A stretch of DNA of 64,000 nt, taken from positions 50,447,514-50,511,513 of the forward strand of contig JASCQW010000081.1 of the NCBI GenBank assembly GCA_030264375.1. Reading direction: 5' to 3'. Of this stretch, positions 19,816 to 47,270 are shown piece after piece. A program made the position numbers and the translations under genes. Origin of the DNA: Carcharhinus longimanus (Eukaryota). Below the pieces are notes generated by a model. The model did no database searches, was not told where the DNA came from, and saw only the letters and a program-made list of their open reading frames with translations. Positions within the stretch are counted from its first letter, which is position 1; the number at the start of each line of letters is the position of its first letter.

Positions 19816-20030
19816 TCAGATGGTCCAGTTTAAGCGTACACTAACAACGTGAAGCACTAGGCAACTCTCGAAGCAACATCCAAGAGTAGCCCTCGCACGA
19901 CCCACCGCATGTATGCTCCTTGTTGGACAACAAGGTGGACCGAATCTCCTGTGGATTAAAAGAGAAGACATATATGAGGCTGAATTATAGTTTTACCTTA
20001 ACTCAAGTATTCAATCAATGTTGAAGCCAT

Positions 20031-20282
20031 GCGCCAGGGTTCTGGATTCGATTCCTGGCCTGGGTCACTGTCTGCACGTTTTCCCCATGTCTGTGTGGGT
20101 TTCCTCCAGGCGCTCCGGTTTCCTCTCAAAGTCCAAATATGTGCTGGTTAGGAGCGTTAGCCATGCTAAATTCTCCCTCAGCGTACCCGAACAGGCACCG
20201 GAGTGTGGCAACTAGGGGATTTTCACAGTAACTTCATTTCAGTGTTAATGTAATCCTACTTGTGACACTAATAATTAAACGT
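20031..20282 (+). mobile_element. V-SINE, tail type B, 5' truncated
   Basis: V core plus cagcgtacccgaacaggcaccggagtgtggc...cttgtgacactaataa. Confidence 0.85.
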
Positions 20283-20569
20283 AAGAATCTTTTTTGGACA
20301 ATCACATAAAATTACACAGAATATAAAATATAGAAATAGGTCACTCAGCCGAGAGATTTATATTGCTATTCATATCTGCTCAAGCTTCCTCCCATATCTT
20401 ACTTCATCTCACCCTATCGTCATTTTTACATTTTCTCTTTTGAACGCACGCTAGTTTTCCTTTAAATGTGCCCTCACCTTCCATACCAACACTCTGAACC
20501 CCTCTCTGCTAAATCGGATCTCCGTGACCATTACTTTCTGAGCTTGTGCCATCCTCAGCATGTTTAGAA

Positions 20570-20848
20570 ATGTAGAAACTAGAAGGAGTCGAGCATTCGG
20601 CCTTCGAGCCTGCTCTGCGATTGATTATGATCATGGCTAGTCATCAAATTTAATATCCCTGATTCCCTCTTCCCTCCTTATCCCTTGATCCCTTTAGCCC
20701 CAAGAGCTATATCTAATTTCCTCTTGAACTGGGAAGTTGAGTTGAAACACCCAGAGGAAACCTGCACAGACGGTGACCCAAGCCAGGAATTGAACCCGGG
20801 TCCCTGGAGCTGTGAGGCAGCAGCACTAACCATTGTGCCACCATGCCT
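20570..20848 (-). mobile_element. CR1 3' tail next to a SINE 5' portion
   Basis: CR1 tail at about 20570-20730, then a tRNA-derived SINE head at about 20746-20848. Confidence 0.7.
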
Positions 20849-21064
20849 TCCATATGTTAATGGGTAAAGTTTTAACTCAATCAAAACCCTCCAACTTAGA
20901 GTGTTAAAATTGGGTAAATGATTCCAGATTGATGATGTGGACAATGTCAATTACTTGACATAAAGTCATGGTGGGATTATGTGAGATGAGTTGATACAGG
21001 ATATGATGACAACTCATTGAATGCAGGGCAGTTTTATCCTGTAACCCATGGGAGTTTTATTTAT

Positions 21065-21780
21065 CCTTCAAGGCAATCATTTGTCGCCCATGTCTAATTG
21101 TTCTTGAGAAAGTAGTGGTGAGCTGCCTTCTTGAACCGCTGGAGTACTTCTGGTGTAGGTACACCTACAGTGCTGATAGTGACAGTGAAGGAACAAGTGA
21201 TATTTTCCGATATCACCCGTGCTTGTTATTCTCCAGTCTCGCTGTAGTGAAGGGAGTTTTGGCAAATTCTCTGTTCTCTCTGGCAGGGGGCAACAGGGGC
21301 GAACAAGATCGGAGATTCCCACCCACAGTTCCACATCAGGATGATGTGTGGCTTACAGGGACACACGCAGATGGCAGAATTCCCTTATCCTCTGTCCTTC
21401 CGAGTAGTAAAGATCACAGATTTGCAAAGTGTTGTCGGAGGTGCATTGGTGAATTGCTGCTGCGCATCTCATAGATAGTTGAGTTGGCATTTTGCACTGG
21501 TGGTGGCAGTAGTGAATGCTTAAGGTGGTGAATGGGGTGTCAATCAATTGGGCAGGTAAATTCAGGATAGCATCAGGTTTCTTGAGTGTTGTTGGACCTG
21601 CACTCAACCAGGCAAGTGGAGAGTAGTCTATCACACTCCTGATATGTGCCTTGTAAGTGGACAGGCTTCGTGGGATTAGGGGATGAGTTATACACACCTC
21701 AGAATTCCCAATATCTGACCTGCTCTGATTTATGTGGCCGGTCCAGTTTCTGGTCCATGGTAATCCTCCAAAGTGTTGAT
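21065..21780 (-). mobile_element. Non-LTR retrotransposon 3' end (CR1/Jockey group) interrupted by a MITE-like insert
   Basis: ORF 21353..21697 YKAHIRSVIDYSPLAWLSAGPTTLKK; related 3' end repeated at about 22385-22570. Confidence 0.7.
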
Positions 21781-22578
21781 GATTTCAGCAGCATTTTGCT
21801 TTGGTATTGAGCTAGGCGAAAGACGCAATGCTAAAAGATGCAATGACTTTTCTCCTCGCTAAATATGTGTCAAAATCTGAATGTTACTGGAGTTCTGTCA
21901 AGGAATAAGCTAATTTAAAACCTCACCCTCACCAGTTCTTCATTAGAACATCTAGAATAAAAAGAAATTGTAGCAGCAGATTAATTTTTATGTGTTTATG
22001 ATGTGTAGCAGCAGATGGTTCCAATTAAAGTCCCAGCCTATCTGTAATGTCAAAATGTAATCTATTGCTTAAATCTACTCATTATTTAAGTGTCTATTTT
22101 TCAAATGAATACTGAAGTAATACTTGATAAAACCTTGCAATAAAAAGGCAATACCTTTCTTGCCTTCAAGTCAGGTCAAATATGAAGTTTCTGATGACAG
22201 CATGCCCACAAATTGCCTATTTTCATGCTATAATAATGTTCATTAGAATCACACACGCTTGGCAGACTTCTCCTTGCAACAGCTGAAGGGCCCTGCTCCC
22301 CATGTGCCAGCAGTTTTTAACAGCTGTGTTGAATGGCATCCAAAAAGTAGATCTTCAGCGAGAGTATTGAGTTGAACATGCCTTTTCTTATTCATTCCTG
22401 GGAAGCGAGCATTGCTGGCAAGGTCAGTGTTCATTTCCCTCTGCACTGTCCTTGAGAAGGTGTTAGTGAGCTGCCTTCTTAAACCAGTGCAAGCGTGATA
22501 GCAGAGGTGCACCCAACCGTGGGCAGGGAGTTCCAGGCTTTTCAGCTGGCTACATTGAATAAATGGCGATGTGGTTTG

Positions 22579-22770
22579 AATCATAGAACCCTACAGTGCA
22601 GAAAGAGGCCCTTTGGCCCATCGAGTCTGCACCGAACACAATCCCACCCAGACCCTACCCCCATATCCCTACATATTATACCCACTAATCCCTCTAACCT
22701 ACGCATCCCTAGGCACTAAGGTGCAATTTCTAAACATGGCCAATCAACCTAACCCGCACATCTTTGGACT
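22579..22770 (-). mobile_element. HE1-like SINE 3' half, tail A
   Basis: catagaaccctacagtgcagaaagaggcc tail. Confidence 0.8.
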
Positions 22771-23171
22771 TCTCTGTCCATTGACTGTAGATGCTATATA
22801 TGAAATGTGTTTGGGCAGTCTAAATACATTTCTTGTAGGAGCATGATCCTTCTATGGGAAAACTGGCACTACTTAACAATCTCATTCCAAGAGAATTGTG
22901 GCAAATCGAGAAAGTTACACTTTGGTACAAAGGGGATATCTTCTGAGGCCGGAGCCATGGCATACTGTGTGGGTAGACCAGAGGAAACTTTACTCTGCAT
23001 TGAGTTTGGATATATCTGACATGGGATTATTTGATGTTGCCACTTAAGGTTTTGATTTTAACTGGTTCACCAGGCAGAAACCAGGGGGCTGTTAAAAATG
23101 GGGTGGGGGGGGTGGGTATGCAAGGTTCTTTATTCACTCTTTTGCTGTTTGATCTCGCTGACTAGCAAACT

Positions 23172-23476
23172 GGGACAGCATGGTGGCAGAGTGATTAGCA
23201 CTGCTGCTCACAGCACCCGAGCACCTGAGTTCAAATCTTGGCATAGGTCACTGTCTGCATGGAGTCTGCATGTTTTCCCTATGTCTGCATGGGTTTACTC
23301 TGGATATTCCAGTTTCCTCCCACAGGCCAAAAGACATGCTGGTTAGGTGCATGGACCATGCTAAATTCTCCCTCAGTGTAACCGAACAGGTGCCAGAGTG
23401 TGGCGACTCGGGAATTTTCACAGTAACTGCACTGCAGTAAAATGTAAGCCTATTCGTGACACTAATAAACTTTAAA
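23172..23476 (+). mobile_element. V-SINE, full length, tail type B
   Basis: A and B boxes, V core, tail ending gtgacactaataaactttaaac. Confidence 0.88.
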
Positions 23477-24142
23477 CATTGCAAGGATACCCATCTCAAA
23501 TGAGTGGAGTCCTCTTGATTGACCTCTAACTACATTATTGGGGCCAGATCTGCTTTATTTTAAAAGTTGAAGCATGAGCAGTAGAGCAGTCCCAATTTCC
23601 CTTTAAATGAAACCTGCTGGGAACAGCAACTAAGGTTAGTGGAGGTCTAGCAAGTTGGGTTTAAACTTTTAAGGCCTTTTGACCTTAAATAAAATTCCCC
23701 AACCAAGCTGTAGCCATCCGCTGACATGTCCCAGGGACAGTTCACCTGGATTCCAATGCCAGGTTCCTATTATTTTAAAAACTAGACAGCTGTTTTCAAC
23801 AGACTTCATAGCAATTTTTGCTGGGAAGTAGGAAACTGACAAGCTAATGAGGCCCACTGGTTAAAATTGGCTGAAAATGCCTGCTCCTCCCCAACATATC
23901 GCTCTCTTTGTTGTGTTTCTGCCCAGTGGTTAAAATTGAGTGGTTAGTGTCTAATTCTCCAACACTGAAGCGAGGTGAGGTGCAGTGGTGGTAGATCACT
24001 GAGAAACTATCTTAAAAACACTCAAGTGTTGCACAGAGCTGTTCTGACAATGCTGATGGTTCTTGTTGTTTTTGATTGCGAAAAATGGGTTGTAGGAGTA
24101 ATAGCAAGACAACAAACTACAGAGACAGTCACATTTCAATAC

Positions 24143-25315
24143 CTGAGTGCAAATTGGAATATATTCATCAAGCATGTCCTGAAGGAGGTCCTCAAGATCT
24201 GCCATATCATCAAAGTTAAGGTGCATCCTAGGAGGTTCTAGGTATCTGCCAGCTAATTCATGGCCATGGTTTTGTAGATGTGACTTGGAAATTCCATCAC
24301 CCAAACTGCCACTTGACTGAGAGCCCAAAGGAGAGGGCCTGAGTGGAACTGGCAGTTTGCTGCCTTTTGGACTCAGAACAGGCCTGTATTCTACATTCTT
24401 CACTAAGTTAAGTACGAAGTCCAGTTTTTGGCTGTGCAACATAGGGTGAGTTGCTTGGCCATCAGAAAAGTCCGATTTGGGACTTTTGTCATCTTTGGCA
24501 CCTTTTTCTACTTGTGCCACTTCTCTGACAGGTGCAGAGGATTCCACTGCAGCACCAAGAGATTCAACAGAAGAGGCTGGAGACATTTTATCCAGAGAGT
24601 CAGCATAGACAGAAGTCCTAGACTCACACTGGGTAATGGACACAGTCTCATGTATGACCGGCATTGTCAGTCCTTCCTCAGCAGTCATGCTGCCCACCAC
24701 ACTACTTCCACACTTGATAGATGGATCACTAGAAACAGTCTTTGCTAATTTGCGGGGCACTCTGCAAACTGCCTCATAGTCTGCATCATTCACACGCAAG
24801 GCGGAACAGCTGCGACACTTCCGGGATTTGTAGCTGGAGGTCTCTGAAGTCTGGCAGCTATGAGTTTCCATGGCCTCCTCCCCCTGTTCTGTCCACGATT
24901 CAAATCCAGAATAGACAAAGTCATCCTGCAGCAGCGCGTGATACCGAACATCGGGGAGGTTGGAGACATCTGCCACGATATCCTCTCCCTTGCTGTCAGT
25001 GCTTGGATCCTCATTGTTTTTACGATATAGACTAGCTATGCAGTGCTTGATACGATCCTTCTCTACGAGCAGCTTCTGCAAACGCTCAATGGATAGTGCT
25101 TCAATCCTTGCAATAACTGTGTCAAACCTGTAGATACGGTCTAACATGAATGCACATTTGCTACAAGCAAACTCTGCTTTCCCATCTCGGGAGACCTCTT
25201 TGCCCAGTATGTGTGATAGGATAACCTGTAGGTTCAATTTGGAAGCTGTGTGAAAGATCCATCGTCGTTGGTTACCACATAGCTCTCGGGCACAGATTCT
25301 ACAAGCCTCCTTCAT
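24143..25315 (-). CDS. PDE4DIP: Alternative first coding exon of the short myomegalin isoform (SMYLE/MMG8 type), 391 codons
   Basis: ORF 23996..25315 starts MKEACRICARELCGNQRRWIFHTASKLNLQV...FACSKCAFMLDRIYRFDTVIARIEALSIERLQKLL, nearly identical to the recalled human MMG8 N-terminus. Donor cag|gtattg after ...YIPICTQ, phase 0. Contains the SKLP EB1-binding motif. Confidence 0.97.
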
Positions 25316-25499
25316 TTTCCAGCATGGAGTTGACTATTCACTAAAAAAATGATAAAGTGCACAAGATCAACCAGCAATGTCAAAATGCAAACAGAAATGT
25401 CACAACCCTGGTCAATCTGATATGTGGGCTTTGACCTTTGGCCTTGGCTTCTCAATAATAATGGAAAAGTCAATGGTTTATATCAGTAATAAATAACTT

Positions 25500-27150
25500 T
25501 GCTGCACCCAAGATTCAAATAACCAGGCCCGGCAGGAAGTCAACCTATAATCAGTGCTTGTAATCAAAGCACCGAAATTACGCAGGCTCCTTTCCTGTGA
25601 GGCTTGGGTTCCGCTCTGATGTTGAGGTGTCAGTCATTCATTTCGGTTAATGAATTCTATCTGCCGCCAATTCGGATAAATGATGGTTCCGACGCTATCT
25701 CGAACCAATTCAGGGCTTAGCAAGGCGGCACCAACTCACATCTTGTTGTAAAATGCGCGGTTTTAAAAATTATCTTCCAGAAAAAAAATCCGTGCAATAA
25801 ATTATCAATTGAACTCGGTACATCACATAGGCCAGCGATCCGGATTTCCTTTGTTCCCAGTTTAAACGCAGCCCTCATTAAATGCAATTACAGGTGAATC
25901 AAAAAGCGGGCGGTGGTTCGTACGTTTTGCAGAAACAGTATCCATTCCGCCTCCATTCCCTGAAGGATTAGAACTCAGAGACTATGTCGATGGGCAGGGC
26001 CAGCAAGTGTCATTGTAATCTATATATAAAAAAAATCCCTGGGGCCGCCGAATGAACACCGATCCCTTTCAGTCTGCACACGTTGCTGGGCTATCTTCTT
26101 GTCGGAGAGAACGTCGCACACGGTTCTGAGAATAACTCTTCATTTACTCCAGAGAAAGAACCACCTTACCATCCTTTGGTCTGCTTTGCTCCCACTCGGT
26201 GCTGAAGGCAGGGCAATTTAATATCAGACCGGGAGATACCGCCCACTCAATCTCAAACAAAGCAGCAGCCTGATAAGTAACGGGACAGACTGGAAGAGAT
26301 TGCCTATCGAAACTGATTCAATCACGTACCGTTATGTGGGTTTTCTGGATACAATGTCACCAGGACACAGGGAAAGCCGCTGTTTGCAACTATCTAACCC
26401 GGCAGTGATGTGGCAACACTGTAAAGTGTAGCTGCCTGGAACTGACAGTGTTCCAGGGATCTGGGACAAACCATACGCTACTCGGGGAGGATCCGCTCCA
26501 TTCTGAGCCTCCGAAACTCATTGCAATCTGACAAACCTCGCTGCAATTTACAACACAACAACCGATATTACGTTAAAATGCAGTTCCAGTAGGCACGGTG
26601 CAGGAATAAGGACTCCGAAGCGTCTGAGAGGAAACCACCTATCTTCACCCGCACCCGTCTGCGTTGTGATACGATAGGCCCGAAACATGTCCTTTGTCCA
26701 GTTTGGTTCCCCCCTCCCCCGCCGGGCACTGTCTGCCAACGCAGGAGGCTGCGGCACCAGCTCCGAGCCCTACTCCCCGGCAGGATAACTCTTTTTTAAT
26801 ATAAATAAATACTTCCTGCAGAAACTTGTTCCTGCTCATCAGTGTTGCAAAACAAGAACACTGCACGTTTCGTCTACCTGGCTCGATAGTGTTGTTCCTG
26901 GCCTGATTGGCATTGCAAATACGTCTGGTATCTTGTGTGTTGACTACCTTTAAAGGTGGGCGTTGTGCGAGGTCGGCGCGCATCGTAGGAAAACCCCCAC
27001 TGTCTGAGGGTACAGTCTCTTTAAAAATACAAGGGATCTATTGTTTTGCACTCTTCTCGCATGAAAGGCCCGCTGTCTCAGCTTGCTTTCACCCAAGAGG
27101 TTCAAATCCGAGAACAGCGTCAAGATGGTGTGATCCAACAATATATTTTT
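25500..27150 (-). promoter_or_regulatory. CpG-enriched internal promoter / 5' leader of the SMYLE-type isoform
   Basis: No recognisable repeats and visibly more CpG than the flanking introns; lies directly upstream of the alternative first exon. GC boxes near 25908 and 26710, CCAAT on the minus strand near 26905, AT-rich TATA/MEF2-like motifs near 26020 and 26795. TSS not determinable. Confidence 0.65.
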
Positions 27151-27861
27151 AAAAAGTCAAAACATCATTTTTATTAAAGAAGCTGTAAGAAGCCATCTTG
27201 AGTGGCGGTGTGCAAGACAATAGCAGCACATAACTCAGCTACAACACTCAAGAATCCCCAAGAAGACCTCTGAGAGATATGAGTTATTTCTCTGCCACTA
27301 GATGTTAAATTGATCTAGTAAACCATTAATATGTTTGTATTCAAGAAGCTGAATTGTCTGACAATAGATGCTGTCTGTGAGACCGAAACAAAAATAATCA
27401 TGTTTCCAGCATGAGTGACATTGCATCAAGTGAAGAGGTGAAGTAGTTTCCTGTTTATTTAGATAATGTGACAGTTTAATGGCATTAGGGGACATAATAA
27501 GATTATAAGGGAAGATTTTATAGGTTGATACAAATGCCAGCTGAAATGATAAATGCCAGTTTGATTTTATGATAATATAGTTTTAGTGCTCCCTCTGCAC
27601 CATAGATTTAGCAGATGACCTAGTCTGTGGACTCAGTGTAATACTGAAGGAGTGTTTTATGCACAAATGTATAGTTTTTCAATTGAGATGTCAAACTAAT
27701 ATATAGGTTCAGATCCTATGGCACAATTCCTATGGGTCAATACCAGAAGGCATAGTTTTAAGGTACGAATCAGGCCATTTAGAGGGTATTTCAGGAAAAA
27801 CCTTTTTACCCAGAGAGTTGAGAGAATCTGGAATTCCCTATCTGAAAGGATGGTAGAGGAA

Positions 27862-28565
27862 TTGTAAGAAGTCTCACAACACCCAGGGGAACAAGTTTAT
27901 TTGGCATCACAAGCTTTCAGAATGCTGCTTCTTCATCAGATGAGTGGAGGTTACAAACACGGCGTATATAGGCAAAGACACAACTGCTGAATGGACACCA
28001 CACAATTGCCAGGCAGGAGTGTTCCCTTTGAGTAGAGGAGCACTTCAGCATTCAAGGACATTCAGTCTCTGATCTTCAGGTAGGCGTTCTCCAAGGTGGC
28101 CTTCAAGATACATGAAAAAGCAGAATCACCGAGCAGAAACTTTTAGCCAAGTTCCACATGCATGAGGACAGCCTCAACGGGGATCTTGGGTTCATGTCAC
28201 ACTAAGCATAACCCCCACCATACTGCCTAGGTTTGCAAAATCCTGTTAACTGTCCTAGCTTCAGACAAATCACACCCCTTTAACCTGTGATTATCCCTCA
28301 CTCCATGCACACTGTTTGTACCTGTAAAGACTTGATTCCTATAAAGACTCACATTCCAACAATTCTTTGCATTCCAGTCTGTAATTATGTTGCAATTGTG
28401 ACTTTGCCTATTTATGCCATGTTTTTGAACTTACCTCCACTCACCTGATGAAGTAACAATGTTCTGAAAGCTCGTGATTCCAAATAAACCTGTTAGACTT
28501 TAAGCTGGTGTTATGAGACTTCTTACTGTGCCCACCCCAGTCCAACACAGGCATCTCCACCTCAT
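27862..28565. mobile_element. Truncated Penelope-like element with inverted pseudo-LTRs
   Basis: About 130-bp inverted repeats (27862-27990 and 28390-28527) flank a + strand GIY-YIG C-terminal remnant (EHFSIQGHSVSDLQV..LQGGLQ...EQKLLAKF). Confidence 0.85.
28441..28477 (+). ncRNA. Minimal type-I hammerhead ribozyme motif in a Penelope pseudo-LTR (degenerate stem II)
   Basis: tcac-CTGATGA-a-gtaac aat gttct-GAAA-gc-TC-gtga. Catalytic boxes intact, stem I tcac/gtga, palindromic AGCT in place of stem III. Confidence 0.7.
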
Positions 28566-28967
28566 CGTTGAAGAAGCATTTAGATGCTGTGGCACTTGAA
28601 ATGCCACAACATACAACACAACGGATCAGGTGCTGTAAAATGGGATTAAAGTAGATAGGTGCTTGATGGCCATCACAGTCACGATGGGCTGAAAGGTCTC
28701 TTTTTTTTGTGCTGTAAACCTCTGACTCTAACATGGATAATCTTCCAATACCCTCAATGATCATTAATAAAAATAGATAAACTGCTTGCAGTATCTTGCT
28801 GCCTGGGTTTGTCTGCTGTGTTTAACTACTTGACAACACTTCAAAACGTAATCACTCTCTCTTTTCCCCCTTTTTAGTTAATTGTCCCAATAACAATCTC
28901 AACTTATTTTTCATCTAGAAATTCATAGCATGATCAAAGTCTACATGGTTTTGAAAAGGAAATCTTC

Positions 28968-29305
28968 ATAGATACCCTACAATGCAGAAAGAAGCCATTT
29001 GGCCCATCAAGTCTGCACCGACCCCAATCCCACTCAGGCCCTACCCCCATATCCCTACATATTTGCCCACTAATCCCTCTAACCTACATATCTCAGGACA
29101 CTAAGGGACAATTTTAGCGTGGCAATCAACCTAACCTGCACATCTTTGGATTGTAGGAGGAAACCGGAGCACCTGGCAGAAACCCACGCAGACACGAGGA
29201 AAATATGCAAACTCCACACAGACAGTGACCCAAGCTGGGAATCGAACCTAGGTCCCTGGAGCTGTGAAGCAGCAGTGCTAACCACTGTGCTACTGTGCCA
29301 CCCAT
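28968..29305 (-). mobile_element. HE1-like V-SINE, full length, tail A
   Basis: Complete head, V core and tail on the minus strand. Confidence 0.9.
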
Positions 29306-30060
29306 GTTGTTTGACAAATTTATTAGAAATTTTTGAGGATGTAATCAGTAGGGTAGGTGACAGGGAACCAGCAGAAGGAGTACACTTGGATAAGGTATGA
29401 CACAAAACTTGAATGCACAAGACAAGGGTTCATGGAGTTGAGGTAATTATAGATGATTGATTCAGAGACAGGAAGCTAAAGATTGGAATGAACAAGGTAT
29501 TTCCCATTGACAGGCTATGGCTCGAGTGCGGCAAGCATCAGTTCTTGGGCCTCAACTACTTACAATCTATCTTAATGACTTAGACAAAGAGATGGAGAGT
29601 AATGAATGCAAGTTTGCTGATGATACAAAACTATGTGAGAACGCAAGTTTTGAGGAGAACACAGAGGCTGCAAAAATATTTGGAAAGTGGAATTAAAATG
29701 AGCGGCCAGTTTTTCTTTTCTTTAAAATAAAATTTCCGGTGAGTCAGCCCACTGACTCTCCAAAACAGCATCTCAACTAGGCCAAACCCCACCCTTTCCC
29801 CATAACCTTGCGCATTTACAATGGCCAATCTACCTAACCTACACATCTTTGTATCATGGAGGAAACAGGAACATCCAGAGGAAACTCATGCAGACACAGG
29901 GAGGACATGCAAACGCCACACAGTCACCCAAGGCTGCAATCGAACCTTGGTCTCTGGCATTGTGAGGCAGCAGTACTAACTACTGTGCTGCCCTGCCTCT
30001 TTTTTGAGATGACGAACTGAATGGCTTCTTTCTGCACCATAACCTTTCTATAGTTCTATG
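29306..30060 (+). mobile_element. CR1 RT fragment with a nested minus-strand SINE (about 29745-29995)
   Basis: tgtttgacaaatttattagaa...cttgggcctcaactacttacaatctat...tttgctgatgatacaaa (FADDTK). Confidence 0.75.
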
Positions 30061-31387
30061 AAAAAAAGACACTAAATCAATTCGACCACTTATACCTCAA
30101 AAATTGCTAAATGCTATACATGGTCCTTGTGCACTATGGTTCATTCTGTTGTTAAATGTGGAAGTGCAGCAGTCATTTTGCACTCAGAAAGCCTTCACAA
30201 AGAACAGAAGTAAATGACAGTGAGCTCATGGCCATACACCTACTGCCACAAAAGTCTGATAAGCAAACAGAATATTGGCAGTAGCTTACGATGTTCCTGC
30301 TGAATAGGAGAGCCAGCATGGGATGTTCCAGACGCTGAGGATCCTGATGATCAGACTGCACCTCCCATTGAAGGCCTCAGTTAAGATCATGGCCTTAGGT
30401 AAGTGTTAAGGGATAGACTATTTAGTAAGAAGACAGCTACATCATACTAAAAGCAGCAGATTTGGAAAAGAGATTTCAGACTGTAGTGGAGATTTTCTGC
30501 TCTCTTTCCAAAGGGCACCAGATTTTTTAAAAGCCAAAGTTGCAATGGGACAGGTGGCCGAGTGATATTGCGCAATCCAGCCCTTCGATGTTTTTTGACA
30601 GCGTCTAAAATATGCGACGAAAAGCCGGCAGTGCAACTGCCGAGTTACCCTCCACTTTTCTCACCCGAGNNNNNNNNNNNNNNNNNNNNNNNNNNNNNNN
30701 NNNNNNNNNNNNNNNNNNNNNNNNNNNNNNNNNNNNNNNNNNNNNNNNNNNNNNNNNNNNNNNNNNNNNNNNNNNNNNNNNNNNNNNNNNNNNNNNNNNN
30801 NNNNNNNNNNNNNNNNNNNNNNNNNNNNNNNNNNNNNNNNNNNNNNNNNNNNNNNNNNNNNNNNNNNNNNNNNNNNNNNNNNNNNNNNNNNNNNNNNNNN
30901 NNNNNNNNNNNNNNNNNNTTGGACAAAAAAAACTGATAAATTCCGGTGTATTTTTGCACAAAGCTTTGATGAGGAAAAATGCACAGATAAATTTCCTGCT
31001 TTCCTGCAAATATTGCCATTGCATTTTTTAAATATATCTACTTGAACTACTCAAAGACAGGGGCTTTGTTTCATGGGTCTACTTCAATGCCATGCTTGTA
31101 CGAGGCAGTGGTTTTCTAATCTCTCTCTGTATTTAGCTATGGGAAGACATGGTTTCAGCTGAGACCATTGTGGTGCAATACTTCAGGGTATTTCTGCTCC
31201 TTGAAAGGTCTCTCACTGGCTTTTCTGATACTTCAGTGACACCCCTGCTGCGGTACCATTAATATTCTGTTTTCACTGGAGGGTCCATATTGGCAACAGG
31301 CTTCTACTAGCAGCCTGATGCGCATTTTATTTTTTATGAGCCCCAAGCCAAGAAAATGGATCTTGATTGGGTTTTAGCGAGACATGT

Positions 31388-31670
31388 AAAAGTTTAAAGT
31401 TTATTTATTAGTGTCACAAGTAGGCTTACATTAGCACTGCATGAAGTTACTGTGCAAATCTCCTAGTCACCACACTCTGGCACCTGTTCGGGTGCACAGA
31501 GCGAATTTAGCATGGCCAACACATCTAACCAGCACATCTTTTAGACTGTGGGAGGAAACCAGAGCACCCAGAGGAAACCCACACAGACACAGTGAGAGCG
31601 TGCAGACTCTGCACAGGCAGTGACCCAAGCTGGGAATCGAACCCAGGTCAGTGACGCTCTGAGGCAGCAG
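31388..31670 (-). mobile_element. V-SINE, tail type B
   Basis: aaagtttaaagtttatttattagtgtcacaagtaggc tail plus V core. Confidence 0.88.
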
Positions 31671-32339
31671 TCTTACTCTGCTGGAATAGGAGAAAGTCCA
31701 GCCAATATTTGGAGTAGCAGACTGTGGCATTGTATGGTCAAACAAGCAATGCAAATCAAATCATAAATTTGAAACATTACAATTTTAAGATAAACCCAAG
31801 ACATTTTAGGTCTGATTTTCTTTTCTTTGCTGAAGTCACTGGTGTCAACTGGAGGAACAGAAGGGTCAGTTGGAATTATGATGGCTTCAGGCACATAACT
31901 TAAAATATTGGACCAATGCAATGAGATAAAACCTGTCTATATTTACATTCTTAATACCTTGCCAAGAAACTTGAGTGGTACAATGATGGTTATCTCTTGC
32001 AGTGAATTGCCCTTCACGGAACTGTTGTTAACATTGGTCATGCACATGACTAAATTCCACATAGGAGCAACATGGCAATTGAAGTTTTTCCAACATAATC
32101 ACTATATACTCCATACACTACAACGTGTATTGTATGTGTTCAATACTGGATCCATTAATTGAGATAAAGTGCAAGTATTCTTGCAAGATGAGAATAGGCT
32201 CCTTTTTTAAGCTTATAATTAGTAAACTGTTGTCTTACTAAGTAAAGCACAAAGTCCCAATATGATACACTGGTCATAACTTGTGGAAGCAAACAGGAAC
32301 CACATGCACAGTTTTATCATATTTGCCTGTGTGTTGGCT

Positions 32340-33030
32340 TGACTTAATGGCAGCAATTCTTAACTCACATAATTTAAGCTTATACTTCAGAGTGGTATTG
32401 AGGAATTGCTGCAATGTCAAAGTTGCCTGTTATCAGGTGATATGTTAAACAAAGGAAGAACAGGATGTTCTCTCAAGAATTCTGTCCAACATTCATCCCA
32501 GAACCAATGCCACCAAACATGATCTTGTTGTTTTTTCATTTGTTATTATCAAGAGGCACTTAAGTAGTAGGATATTCAAAGTAATATTCTAACAGTCCTC
32601 ACATATATCTTTGAGTGAATTAAATACATTTAACACTACATTTAATTATTATTTTCATATAGAAAATTTATACGAACAAACGTGTACGTCCAGGATGTCT
32701 CAAACAAGGATGAATTATTCTAAAGTTACTCATTATTGTTATAAAGATAAACATGTGCTAGTGCATGAGCTATAACTGGTTAATCTGATTTCCTGGTCTT
32801 GGCTGAGGAATAAATGTTGGTTAGAACACCTGGACAATTCCCAACTCTTCTTCAAAATGGTGTCACGTGACCTTTTTACATTCTGAACAAGCTGACACTT
32901 CCATGGTTTAAGGTCTCATCTGAAATACAGCATCTATCATTTCCTCAGTCTAGATTACGTGCTCAGTCCCTGAAGCAGAAGTGTGAACTCATAACTTCCT
33001 AACAGAGACAACAGCACTACCACTGAACCA
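32340..33030. mobile_element. Two decayed DeuSINE-like copies in opposite orientation
   Basis: Deu-like core on + at about 32400-32520 and on - at about 32790-33030. Confidence 0.5.
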
Positions 33031-33535
33031 AAATTTTAAAGTTTATTCATGAATAGAGTGAATCTCTTTAATTTGCCACTCTGGACAAATTGATTAAGAA
33101 AGATTAAGATTAAGATTGATTAAGAAAAGTTTGGAACTGCAGTCAAAAAATTAAACAATGTGTTATATGCATTATGGATTGTTTTGATGAAATGACAGTG
33201 ACTCAAGTTCAGGTAATCTTGAATGTGATGCAAACAAAGCTGTTTTGCTGCACTCAATTACACAACAGATTTAGTTGTGCTGTAAGTAATGCCCAAATCA
33301 GTTTACAACATTTTCAGAAGTCACCTGAATGAACTCAGTAGTTAAGAACAAGGAAGATTAAATAGTGTAAGTTCACAGTGCTCAGACATAATATTAAATC
33401 TGGCACCACCCATGCTAGTGAACATAATTAGCTCCACTGAAGGTGTGAATTCAGTGAAGCTAATAAAGTGGAATAAAATCAAGACACACAGCCTTATTGA
33501 AGTGGAATAGTTGACATAAAGAAATTTACACCTAC

Positions 33536-33589
33536 CTGCATTTCCTGCTGCGTCCGCAACTTCTCCCTGCCCAGTTCATCTTGCAAATC
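33536..33589 (-). CDS. PDE4DIP: 54-nt coding exon: DLQDELGREKLRTQQEMQ
   Basis: Strong polypyrimidine tract ttttttttctgttttgctag, donor cag|gtaggt, phase 0-0, open frame, coiled-coil-like. Fits between the 50935 exon and the 9066 exon. Confidence 0.8.
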
Positions 33590-34069
33590 CTAGCAAAACA
33601 GAAAAAAAATATTGGTTACTGTGAGGCAGGGCATTCCTTTATTCAGCAATCCGGTAATCCCTGAGAAATTGCACTTGGCCTTGGAGTACAGTTGACATGC
33701 TTTAACATTGCNNNNNNNNNNCATTGCAACGGGCAACCTCATTCTTTGTTCTCTCTATCAGTGGCATTCTCAAATAAAAACAGTAGTCACAAGCATTTCG
33801 AATTAAAACATCCATATTCAATTAGTTGGAACAAATATGTTCCCAGAAAGAAAAAAGATGTGGGACTCCCAACTCACCTCACACTCCTTCCAGATGCCAA
33901 AATACAGAGTTACGCTAAGGCATAAAAGAGCAGCTTATCACTGATATCAGGCCGGCCATTCACACCAGTGGGATTTTCTAGCCCGCTGCAGTGAACAGAG
34001 ATTTGACTGATTCTCCATCCTCACGAGAATACAGCAATGGGGCATGAATGGCCAGAGAATTCTGGCCCA

Positions 34070-34890
34070 GAGCTCAATACGTAGGTCATTCTGCTATTTG
34101 GATCTGCTCGGCATTTCAGTATGATCATGGCTGATCCTCTATCTCAATGCCATAGTTTTGCACTCTCCCCATAATCCTTGTCATGTTTACAGTCTAGAAA
34201 ATTTTATCTATTTCCTTCTTAAATATACTTTCACTTGGCCCCCACAGCCTTCTGTGGTGAAGGATTCCCCAGGTTCACCACTCTGAGTGAAGAGGTATTT
34301 CCTCATCTCGTTCTATCAAACCTACTTGTATCCTGAGACTGACTGTTTATTCTAGACCCCCAGCCAATAATGCAGAAAGTCTTGGGAAGTATAGAAAATG
34401 CAAGGATAAAATTGAAAGGAAGTTAGGAGAATAAAGAAAGGGCATAAAAACAAGTAAAAAATCAAGGAAATCCCAAATATGATTTATAAACTACATAAAA
34501 AATAAGAGAATAAGAGGAATGATAAAAAAACCAAAAAAACTAGTGTGTGTGTGGAGGCATGATTCTTGATGACTACCTTGCAGTTAAAAATGCAGACACT
34601 GTAATTAAGGAGGAGTGTGAAATATTGGATAGTGAAAGGGATTGTACATCTTTGAAGTAGATAACTGAGCAGGATCAAATGAAATGCATCACAAACTGCT
34701 AACAGAAGCAAGGCTGGAAATAGCTGAGCTCTGACCATTTTCCAATCCTATTTGGCCACAGCCATGTTGCTGGAGGAATGCTAATGTATTATTGTTTAAA
34801 AAGGGAGGAATGGATCGACAAAGTGATTACAAATCAGTCAGCTTAACCTCAGTAGACAACTTAGAGGAAACATTTGAGGAACAGTATATA

Positions 34891-34922
<32 letters not shown>

Positions 34923-35660
34923 CATAGAAGCACAAATTAATGAAGGTCCAGGTGTGTGGGTTAGGTTGATTGGCTATGCTAAACTAAAAAACCTAGTGTC
35001 GGGGGTTAATAGGCTAAATACAAAGGGTTACGGGAACCAGGTCTGGGTGGAACTGTTTGGTGCAAACTTGATGGGCCAAATGGCCTCCTTCTGCACTGTA
35101 GGGATTCTATGAAAGGGAATGTTTTGTCTGACTAACCTAATCAAATGTTTTGCGGAGATAACAAGTAGGATCAATGAGGGATTGCGTAGTCTATGTGGAG
35201 TTTAAGGCTTTTGACAAAGTCCCAGGTGACAGACTGGTTCGAACAAAAAAAAAGCCCACGAATTGAAGGACAAACAAAAAGTTGGATCCAAAATTGGCCC
35301 AGTAGCAGGGACAAAACTATAAAAATGGTTATTTTTGTGACTGGAAGGCTTCCAGCGGGATTCTGCAGGGTTCACTATAGAATCCCTTGCTTTTGTGTTA
35401 CATTTCAATGATTTAAACTTAAACATAGGGAATTATTAAGTAGTTTTCAAATGATACAAAAATTGGTTCATGGTTGATTGTGAAGAAGAAAACTACAGAC
35501 TGTAGGAAAGTTTCAATAGACTGAACAGATAGGCAGAAAAGTGGCAAATGATATTCGATCCAGAGAAGTGTGAGGTAATACTTTGCACGAGGAAAATAAT
35601 GAATAAGTGGTAGGATACTGAGAAATGTAGAGAAACAGAGGGTCCTTGGAGTGTCTGACA
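34070..35660. mobile_element. Cluster of CR1 fragments (minus 3' end, then plus ORF2) with a nested SINE 3' half and a (TA)n tract
   Basis: FKKGG...YKSVSLTSV and DDTK-like motifs; SINE at 34950-35112; (TA)n at about 34893-34918. Confidence 0.75.
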
Positions 35661-35934
35661 GACAAAATACAGGTTTTATGGACAGAGAAAGAGGGAGAGA
35701 GAGAGGTGATGGGACAACTTTTCCCCATTTTCTTCACCTCTTGGCTGACTGTGTCAAAACCTATTTTAAGAAAGAGCGTTTTAAAACTTTTGAGTATTGT
35801 GACATAAAGAATAGACATGAACAACCTTTCTGGTGAATTTAATTCAAAAGAAAGGATAAATGTTTATTTGCACAATATCAGAAAAATAAATACAACAAAC
35901 ATCCACTCCCTCAAATGCATAGCCATGCATAGAG

Positions 35935-36254
35935 GGGCAGCATGGTGGCAGAGTGGTTAGCACTGCTGCCTCACAGTGCCAGGGACCCAGGTTCAATTCT
36001 GGCCTCAGGTGATTGTCTGTGCAGAGTTTGCACCTTCTCCAATTGTCAGAGTGGGTTTCCTCCGGGTGCTTTGGTTTCTTCCGACACTCCAAAGATGTGT
36101 GGGTCAGGTTGATTTGCCATGCTAAATAGACCCTAGTCTCAGGGAGACTAGCAGGGTAAATACATGAGATTATGGGATAGGGCCTTTGTGGGATTGTTGT
36201 TGGTGCAGGCTCAATGGGCCAAATGGCCTCCTCCTGCATTGTAAGGATTCTATG
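35935..36254 (+). mobile_element. HE1-like V-SINE, full length, tail A
   Basis: Head ggggcagcatggtggcagagtggttagc, V core, tail gtaaggattctatg. Confidence 0.9.
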
Positions 36255-38911: not shown

Positions 38912-39848
38912 CTTGATGTGGAGATGCCAGCGTTGGGCTGAGGTAAACACAATAATAAGTCTCACAACACCAGGTTAAAGTCCAACAGGTTTATTTGGTA
39001 GCACAAGCCACTAGCTTTCAGAGCGCTGCTCCTTCAACAGGTACGTGGGATTTCAGTTCACAAACAGGGCATGTAAAGACACAAACTCAATTTACAAAAT
39101 AATGGTTGGAATGCGAGCCTTTTACAGGTAATCAAGTCTTAAAGATACAGGCAATGTGAGAGGGTTACGCACAAGTTAGAGATATGTATTGTCTCCAGCC
39201 AGGACAGTTGGTGAGATTTTGCAAGCCCAGGCAAGTCACGGGAGGTTACAGGTAGTGTGATGTGAACCCAAGATCCCGGTTGAGGCTGTCTCTATGTGTG
39301 GGGAACTTGGTTATCAGTCTCCGCTCAGCGACTCTGCATTGCCATGTGTCATGAAGGCTACTGTGAAGAACGCTTCCCTGAAGATCAGAGGCCGAATGCC
39401 CATGACCGCTGAAGTGTTTCCCAACACGAGGAGAACACTCTTCCCTGGTGACTGTCGAGTGGTGTTCATTCATCCATTATCATAGCGTCTGCATGGTCTC
39501 TCCAACGTACCATACCGTGGGACATCTTTTCCTGCAGTGTATCAGGTAGACAACATTGGCCGAGTTGCAAGTGTATGTACTGTGTACCTGGCGGATGGTG
39601 TTCTCATGTGAGATGTTCACGGCACGTGACAATGCAACATCGCTGAGCAGAGACTGATAGCCAAGTTCCGCACACATGAGGACGACCTCAACCGGGATCT
39701 TGGGCTCATGTCACACTATCTGTAACTTCCACAACTTGCCTGGGCTTTCAAAATCTCACTAACTGTCCTGGCTGGAGACAATACACATCTCTAACTTGTG
39801 CTTAACCCTTTCTTCACTCACATTGTCTGTACCTTTAAGACTTGATTA
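38912..39848 (-). mobile_element. Penelope-like element with GIY-YIG remnant and inverted duplication
   Basis: YTCNSANVVYLIHCRKRCPTVWYVGET (GIY-YIG) and VGKHFSGHGHSASDL; 39625-39848 is an inverted copy of about 39130-39350. Confidence 0.88.
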
Positions 39849-45613: not shown

Positions 45614-47200
45614 NNNNNNNNNNNNNNNNNNNNNNNNNNNNNNNNNNNNNNNNNNNNNNNNNNNNNNNNNNNNNNNNNNNNNNNNNNNNNNNNNNNNNNN
45701 NNNNNNNNNNNNNNNNNNNNNNNNNNNNCATGCTACAGCTACAATGTATCAGCTGCCCTGCAGACTTTGGTTGCATTTAACTAATTAAATTTCAAATTTT
45801 GTTTCACTCAATGACTATCCCTTCTCATATTATGGAATTTAACTAGTTACACTCTAAATTTAATACAATACTTAAATTTCCCCAATACCACTTTAAACTA
45901 TTACCCCAGATTAGAGGGAAAAAACTTAAAATTGACCAATTACCTTCCAGCAAACCTACTTAATACCTCTGGACTTCAGCTCCCAGATCTCACTGTGCCT
46001 AGCTCCCTCTCTTGAACCACCTCTTTTTTGTAAAAGAACAGAACAGCACCTCTTCCTCCTCCTTCACTTTCCAAATTCTCTGATATAAGCATTCAGTCTC
46101 CAGCTGCACTTACTTCATGCTTATGATAAACTGCTGGTATTTGTACTAACTCAGGCCTGGATTGTTGGATTGGCAGAAATGGGGGAAAGGGCTGAAAATT
46201 TAAAGTGCCATCTACCATTTTTGCAGGGAAGGGAATGGGTCCGAATTGGGTTGGTGCAAGTGTGTTTTGGAAAAGCAGTTGCCCAATGTAGACAGTATCT
46301 ATCTCCACTAATATCTAATTTTAGTGACCCAGATGTGTGAAACATGACATGCACAGGTTAGTCCTGGTAGAAGTGGGTCTGAACTTTGTGGAATCTTTAG
46401 AAAAATGAGGTATCATTTTGAAGAGGTACGACCCTTTAGAAAAAGTCCCAGAACACTTTTGAGTAAGGTCAAGTGCCACTTGGGAGAGGTAAGGTGCCTA
46501 ATAGGATTGTTAAAGGTAATCTGTTAATTTCATTGAAATTGTCAATAGAGTCAACATGAACTGTTGAAGGCAGTAGTCAAAAGCATTAAAATGAACAATC
46601 AAAGGCAATTGTTCAGCTGTCCAAGGTATTTAGTACCTCTTTTGCACACCCAACAAGTAAACAAACTCAAATTAATTTAGGGACAAATTAAAAGGAGCAG
46701 CTAAGGTATTTAAATCTTTAAAGTGTCAGGACTGTTTAAAAAAAAGTTTGCTATTTCACTCTGTTGACAGAAGCCTTCCGAAATGGTGTGGCTCCCAGTG
46801 AACTCTGCCTCCTTGGAATGAAAATCCAAACTTTCAGGACATCTTTTCCAGGGTCAGGTTTGCACATGGCAAATGTCCTGATTCTGCACTCATGACCTGA
46901 GCAAAAATTCATACTTTAAATTCCAATGAGAGAGTCAGTCACTGTTGAATAGAGAAATGGTTCAAACTAGTTATCAAATTAACTACCCTGCAGGTGTCTC
47001 AAGGAAGGAAACTTGTTTATTACCAACCATAATGGAAATAAACTACAATTTACTGTTAAAGTTAAGCTAAATGCAAACTTGACTAGATTTTAGAAAGAAG
47101 CCAACCTTCAAAACTTGTTCATTTCCTGATTTCAGCAATTAAGTCTCTAGCAGCACTTTCATGTGGCCAACTCACCCTGGCCTGCTTACTGCAATAGAGG

Positions 47201-47270
47201 AAGAAGTCTCACAACACCAGGTTAAAGTCCAACATTAACCTAGTGTTGTGAGACTTCTTATTATGTTTAC
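47201..47270. mobile_element. Fold-back of Penelope pseudo-LTR termini
   Basis: aagaagtctcacaacaccaggttaa / ttaacctagtgttgtgagacttctt; same terminus as at 27865 and 38957. Confidence 0.75.

Follow-up and report, generated by a model that had tools for sequence, protein, structure and literature searches.

Positions 27862-28565 of the window, the 64,000-nucleotide stretch of Carcharhinus longimanus DNA that was analysed, very probably hold a single insertion, truncated at its 5' end, of a Penelope-like element with an endonuclease, likely of the clade Neptune. Its two hammerhead ribozyme motifs are carried as passengers, whose decay has likely been neutral and whose ability to cut RNA is likely gone. 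The description of the region as a Penelope remnant in the first-pass annotation is borne out by the endonuclease remnant, the layout of the pseudo-LTRs (pLTRs) and the matches to the repeat family. The insertion and its surroundings comprise the following features:

27734-27859, plus strand: left-hand part of a dispersed repeat that predates the element, collinear with its right-hand part in 9 of the 11 copies that are uninterrupted
27862-28565, no strand assigned: the whole unit, one insertion in the older repeat
27862-27987, minus strand: inverted, 5'-truncated pLTR without tail (the inverted arm), 76% identical to 28392-28526
27896-27901, minus strand: AAUAAA hexamer of the inverted pLTR, a putative signal read from the sequence
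27907-27943, minus strand: minimal type I hammerhead with intact core, on the PDE4DIP pre-mRNA strand
27980-27987, no strand assigned: inversion junction, about 8 nt common to the inverted arm and the start of the body, placed by alignments to relatives
27981-28199, plus strand: remnant of the C-terminal half of a GIY-YIG endonuclease with two in-frame stops, matching the relative L110
28200-28526, plus strand: 3' untranslated part and direct pLTR, 79-87% identical to family copies
28441-28477, plus strand: minimal type I hammerhead with intact core, antisense to PDE4DIP
28483-28488, plus strand: AAUAAA hexamer of the direct pLTR, a putative signal present in most family copies
28527-28565, plus strand: tail of 38-39 nt, at one end only, delimited by the family 3' ends
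28566-28725, plus strand: right piece of the older dispersed repeat, collinear with the left piece

The two arms of the unit (27864-27987 on the minus strand and 28392-28526 on the plus strand) are 76% identical over 135 columns with gaps of 5 nt and 6 nt, in agreement with the inverted repeats of about 130 bp noted at first pass. Besides the two gaps they differ at 21 of 101 aligned sites, and at 17 of 93 when only non-CpG sites are counted. The endonuclease remnant matches the end of the L110 frame, in which reverse transcriptase (RT), linker and endonuclease (EN) are joined, with 58% identity over 74 aa (E 4.9e-23). Only the last 74 codons of this frame remain in the window copy, which by truncation carries neither RT nor linker; a Pfam scan of four short endonuclease fragments from the window gave no match. 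In L110 a YIDD motif lies upstream of a C-x4-C-x2-C linker and a GIY-YIG-like motif, all in one frame with an N gap. A GIY-YIG-like motif is also found in the relative L109, the zinc linker being absent from the part of its frame examined. The Pfam GIY-YIG model matched one of these two relatives, L109, and did so weakly (16.7 bits against a cut-off of 22.6), the Pfam RT domain gave no match in either, and the frames of eight longer loci fetched for RT consist mostly of N runs.

The pLTR layout, the tail, the hammerhead and the endonuclease remnant place the insertion among the endonuclease-bearing Penelope-like elements. The accessible part of one survey gives a C-x2-5-C-x2-C linker between RT and EN for Neptune and Nematis (PMC8557442), and the linker of L110 matches this pattern. 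The clade is likely Neptune, a label that rests on the linker motif of one relative and leaves Nematis or another linker-bearing clade compatible with the sequence.

The family is large. The right arm gave 3465 first-look candidates in the 2.68-Gb assembly, 40 of which were scored, and the left arm gave 3361, its best relatives belonging to the same family; with at least 3465 first-look candidates, the family has thousands of copies in the genome. Two discrete 3' ends, 38-39 nt apart, recur among 46 fragments from 29 loci, 32 of them having the tail and 14 stopping before it, and the inverted arm stops where those 14 do. Within the 3 kb examined around each of the 29 sampled loci, a head-to-head partner on the opposite strand was present in 10 and was tail-less in 8. 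An inverted, tail-less pLTR copy is typical of Penelope-like elements (PMC8557442, PMC3846280), and the tail has been linked to two start sites of reverse transcription (PMC11167929), according to the accessible parts of these papers.

The window contains further repeats. A second, longer Penelope copy of another subfamily lies at 38914-39847 on the minus strand, followed by an N gap, with a frameshifted GIY-YIG and a tail; its hammerhead core, on the PDE4DIP pre-mRNA strand, reads CUGUUGA. At 47198-47260 a tiny head-to-head palindrome, too short for a hammerhead, is formed by the 3' ends of two pLTRs from the unit's own family, and tRNA-like SINE copies occur near the locus at 20782-20841, 28966-29300 and 29800-30000.

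The older repeat interrupted by the unit is presumably the end of a LINE. About 10-15 nt of the target are missing at the insertion point, and a search for a target-site duplication across the junctions found none of 5 nt or more, the longest direct repeat being 4 nt. Target duplications of 11-12 nt, read by eye, are present in three of eight related inverted units (L007, L009 and L010), and copies without a target-site duplication are described in the available text of PMC3846280. Alignments of the body to relatives begin at 27980 in three of four copies tried, and those of the arm reach 27983-27987 in both of two. The direct and inverted copies would have been laid down in one event by the element's own reverse transcriptase and endonuclease, and would have been joined through the microhomology of about 8 nt with a small deletion of the target. 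On this account the hammerhead is probably present twice because it is part of the pLTR. As far as they are described in the accessible parts of PMC8557442, PMC3846280 and PMC11167929, complex insertions of endonuclease-bearing Penelope elements share with the window copy the head-to-head pLTR, the one-ended tail (30-40 bp in those elements, 38-39 nt in the window), the 5' truncation, the C-terminal GIY-YIG remnant and the hammerhead in the pLTR. The window copy differs from them in its small target deletion without duplication, in lacking a second direct pLTR and in retaining only 74 codons.

The left junction is bridged by contigs of the sequencing runs X2, X16 and X17, the right one by those of X16. 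Runs X16 and X17 represent other organisms, with a divergence of about 2% (101 other letters in 4462), and in their contigs the hammerhead regions contain three and two differences. Compared with this divergence of about 2%, the 17 differences at 93 non-CpG sites between the arms make the insertion likely several times older than the split. Its presence in organisms about 2% diverged fits fixation by drift; a role is also compatible with it.

Both hammerhead cores are present at 28441-28477 (plus strand) and 27907-27943 (minus strand), as first annotated, and the minus copy reads exactly as had been quoted. The cores had been called facing; they are instead arranged head-to-head on opposite strands, with their 5' ends inward, and read away from each other. 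The pattern CTGANGA-N10-18-GAAAGCT has two matches in the 64-kb window, against 0.04 expected, and a count of two was reached in none of 100 shuffles of the window. The search with hammerhead models proposed at first pass did not recover the motifs: Rfam models applied to 20000-36000 with E up to 10 detected neither hammerhead and gave six weak matches, none to a hammerhead.

The core boxes CUGANGA, GAAA and UH are intact in both copies, as are the AGCU palindrome at 15.2-16.2 and an extra A between positions 9 and 10.1. Between GAAA and UH there is only the 4-nt palindrome and stem I has 4 bp, so neither copy has a helix III of its own or loop-loop contacts; the assignment to minimal hammerheads with a palindromic stem III stands. 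In the plus copy, stem I has all four pairs and stem II four of five, with a G-U at the junction and one U-C mismatch; the predicted cleavage site after C28473, also given earlier, is the H of the UH triplet. The minus copy has one U-G within stem I, three of five stem II pairs in the family register (one of them Watson-Crick) and the triplet CUU, with the predicted site after U27911. The G10.1-C11.1 pair has become G-U in both, and the earlier remark that stem II is mutated in both copies was correct.

The core boxes, the extra nucleotide before stem II, the 4-bp stem I and the palindromic 15.2-16.2 are shared with the minimal hammerheads (min-HHR) of Cervera and De la Pena 2014 (PMC4209133), in the accessible part of which opposite-strand motifs 100-700 bp apart are described, G10.1-C11.1 is listed as highly conserved and single motifs are stated not to cleave in vitro. 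Stem II has 5 bp with a 3-nt loop in the present family and 7-8 bp in the Schistosoma min-HHR, and the conserved G10.1-C11.1 pair is lost from both window copies. Sharks are not named in the accessible text of that paper, whose supplements may include shark motifs; a limited literature search found no report of shark Penelope hammerhead ribozymes, and shark copies may be in print.

In the family majority the motif consists of a 4-bp stem I, the core, an extra A, a 5-bp stem II with a 3-nt loop, GAAA, the AGCU palindrome and UC. The natural copy L027 (its positions 1560-1602), which is intact, adopts the fold of a minimal type I hammerhead with pair probabilities of 0.87-1.0. Among 73 sampled copies, which include the two window arms and, being the top of similarity searches, lean towards the window copy's own changes, 49 keep the core and 68 the AGCU palindrome, and core plus all nine pairs are kept in 12 when G-U is allowed and in 3 with Watson-Crick pairs only. 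With 49 of 73 copies keeping the core, two intact cores at one locus are unsurprising. Position 10.1-11.1 is G-C in 38 of 74 alignment rows, the family majority. Since the majority thus has this pair and a paired stem II, the ancestral motif qualifies as a min-HHR, and the window pair are damaged copies of it.

The stems of the family are complementary, 88% of cells being paired against 24.5-52.9% in slid registers. Of the compensating stems named in the first-pass annotation, the complementarity is clear. The covariation score over 74 rows was no higher than chance would give, 111 of 500 shuffles reaching it; covariation is in any case not to be expected among copies that decay within a single family. 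One stem II pair changes from G-C to A-U in 5 of the 74 rows, and no such change occurs in stem I. A-U replaces G-C at the fourth stem II pair in a subfamily comprising L026, L076, L087, L093 and others, and several subfamilies have a UA triplet and a U-G at the end of stem I.

At non-CpG sites, 71 other copies have 122 substitutions in 2199 hammerhead positions and 209 in 3790 flank positions (5.5% each). The plus arm of the window has 6 changes in 37 hammerhead positions against 5 in 71 of the flanks, and the minus arm 6 in 37 against 10 in 64; no conservation above the flanks was seen in either hammerhead or in the 71 other copies. The most variable hammerhead columns in the family alignment are mainly CpG sites, and position 11.1 has undergone CpG decay in 35 of 74 rows. 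As a side effect, this decay enables the extra A to pair in a shifted register and can rebuild a weak stem II. The decay of the hammerhead is likely neutral, both at this locus and in the family.

Folding predictions, which are equilibrium models, bear on what remains of the two motifs. The best stem II energies of the window copies rank 50 and 72 of 76 copies, and the isolated minus motif folds worse than 196 of 200 shuffles. In the isolated motifs a one-base-shifted stem II closed by A-U has a probability of 0.32 (minus, where four Watson-Crick pairs are possible) and 0.58 (plus), falling below 0.01 in longer context for both. The whole element RNA is predicted to form an arm-to-arm hairpin (z -10, equalled in stability by none of 20 shuffles) with an arm-arm duplex of -160.7 kcal/mol. 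In this context stems I and II have probability 0.000, and the hammerhead bases pair with the opposite arm, more than 300 nt away, with mean probabilities of 0.91 (minus) and 0.84 (plus). Both motifs are thus predicted to be buried by pairing between the arms. When two strands of each motif were folded together, stems I and II were swapped and no AGCU helix formed, as was also the case for intact L027; the method cannot score the hammerhead core. During transcription of the long PDE4DIP isoform, the antisense arm would be made first and would pair with the emerging sense arm, giving a long imperfect intronic hairpin instead of a ribozyme, and plus-strand transcripts would behave likewise. By these models the ribozymes are likely inactive, and the earlier suspicion to that effect is supported by the damage to stem II, the burial in the hairpin and a substitution rate like that of the flanks.

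The element sits in an intron of PDE4DIP, the gene for myomegalin, which runs on the minus strand. Relative to the element, the CM1 exon is about 67 kb upstream and the first exon of the SMYLE/EB-MMG isoform is downstream:

23996-25315, minus strand: coding part of the SMYLE/EB-MMG first exon, ATG at 25315, Pfam SMYLE_N with E 3.8e-66
25250-27249, no strand assigned: CpG-rich block recognised by CpG o/e, likely where the SMYLE/EB-MMG isoform has its internal promoter and 5' leader

The open frame of this first exon spans 23996-25333 on the minus strand. Its N-terminus also matches Pfam zf-AD above the cut-off (E 3.5e-7); the accessible text of PMC3575658 gives the same N-terminal region as having no predicted domain. 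CM1 (Cnn_1N) has two matches in the genome, one of them on the same contig and strand. Human CM-MMG and EB-MMG use alternative promoters according to the part of PMC3575658 consulted. With alternative promoters, the CM1 exon upstream and the SMYLE exon downstream, the element would be confined to the long isoform, provided that transcription of the short isoform does not begin upstream of the CpG block. This accords with the earlier placement of the minus copy on the PDE4DIP pre-mRNA strand of the long isoform.

The CpG o/e is 0.60-0.94 in 25250-27249 against 0.26 for the window. Two runs guessed to be RNA have deep contigs over the SMYLE exon, which stop at 26504 and 26359. One contig of such a run is unbroken from the SMYLE coding part to 26504, which suggests that a 5' leader of about 1.2 kb (25315-26504) within the CpG block is left unspliced. 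The minus copy had been placed less than 1 kb from the internal promoter region; for the element this holds with respect to the edge of the CpG block, 0.6-0.9 kb away, and not for the deep contig end at 26504, about 1.4 kb away. The bin 28736-28922 has zero cover in both runs guessed to be RNA and cover in both other runs, and X1 has zero cover at 23500-24060. Contigs end at differing places and repeats intervene, so these cover gaps were not counted as evidence.

With the ribozymes dead, the insertion could act in other ways. Its hairpin could affect A-to-I editing or splicing, and the pLTR AAUAAA could cause intronic polyadenylation on the minus strand or end a promoter-upstream antisense RNA on the plus strand. 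The insertion would then be a PDE4DIP transcript boundary, the hexamer ending antisense RNA or truncating the CM1 isoform, or an edited hairpin, and would shift the isoform balance. The strong predicted duplex of the arms agrees with such an effect, as do low-depth contigs from the runs guessed to be RNA, which extend from the SMYLE exon into the element to 28204 and 28494. In both arms AAUAAA and a GU-rich run after it lie directly 3' of stem I and may be a 3' end signal that belongs to the element itself. Nearly all family copies have the same arrangement, however, so the hexamer is a family-wide pLTR feature with no local gain; moreover, it would sit inside the duplex, and the contigs carry no strand information and may hold DNA. 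An effect of this kind is very unlikely; if true, it would mean that a Penelope end tunes the isoform balance, gamma-tubulin-binding against EB1-binding, of a microtubule-organising gene.

The two arms could also be independent insertions that came to lie head-to-head by chance. Their divergence at 21 of 101 sites plus two gaps is what such an origin would allow, and in the family the mean distance between paired arms (0.154, 16 pairs) is not below that between copies at separate loci (0.147, 2609 pairs), although equal distances are expected also if both arms decay from near-identical sources. A single older repeat, interrupted by the unit, encloses both arms, which no host DNA separates, and the inverted arm stops short of the tail, as inverted partners typically do. 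Two independent events are accordingly a highly improbable origin for the pair, and a single insertion is preferred.

Residual cleavage by the minus copy, through a shifted stem II or in trans with a further transcript of the family, would cut the long PDE4DIP pre-mRNA a short way upstream of the internal promoter and lower CM-MMG but not EB-MMG. Its sense orientation between the CM1 and SMYLE exons, its intact core with the shifted four-pair Watson-Crick stem II possible in the isolated motif, and the conserved intronic hammerheads of amniotes (PMC6155905, accessible part) speak for this reading. Against it, the motif has no helix III and no intact partner on the same strand nearby, the next copy, at about 39.0 kb, having a changed core base; G10.1-C11.1 is lost, most shuffles fold better than the isolated motif, the core is paired to the other arm in context and there is no excess conservation. 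A contig spanning the predicted site (27257-28244, from a run guessed to be RNA) indicates uncut molecules or DNA, and no more. Cores on opposite strands cannot form a cis dimer on one transcript; together with the inactivity of single motifs and the burial in the hairpin, this makes cleavage of PDE4DIP pre-mRNA unlikely. The accessible part of PMC11167929 reports that the Anolis hammerhead cut only with the element's protein and was dispensable for insertion; by this paper and PMC4209133, even undamaged motifs of the type show poor cleavage or none on their own. The effect on the gene inferred at first pass is not supported: the cores cannot dimerise on one transcript, are predicted to be paired to the opposite arm and are no more conserved than their flanks, and it is extremely improbable that the minus copy still lowers the long isoform.

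Several other classes were considered and rejected. The unit is not a MITE or a DNA transposon with terminal inverted repeats, the arms being pLTR ends that enclose an endonuclease remnant; nor an endogenous retrovirus LTR, the linked frame being YIDD RT, linker and GIY-YIG. Animal non-LTR retrozymes (bioRxiv 10.64898/2026.07.22.740005, seen in part) share with it type I hammerheads derived from Penelope-like elements in vertebrates, one chondrichthyan included, but are tandem same-strand non-coding units, whereas the window holds an inverted pair around an endonuclease remnant. The intronic hammerheads of amniotes in RECK, CTCL and DTNB, as described in the accessible part of PMC6155905, are likewise type I and on the sense strand of a vertebrate intron. 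They are conserved across lineages and have tertiary contacts, whereas the window motif is minimal, damaged and still within its transposon. A domesticated hammerhead of the RECK type is rejected, as there is no conservation above the flanks and no helix III or loop-loop contact of its own.

The layout, as far as the accessible literature goes, has already been described for Penelope-like elements, and the window copy is ordinary transposon debris. As it stands it matters little, being one of thousands of decayed copies of the end of a known retroelement. The family, with its two fixed 3' ends, inversion junctions and target duplications or deletions, is a usable record of Penelope-like copying, and intact natural copies such as L027 could test whether minimal hammerheads of vertebrates cut as dimers or require the element's protein.
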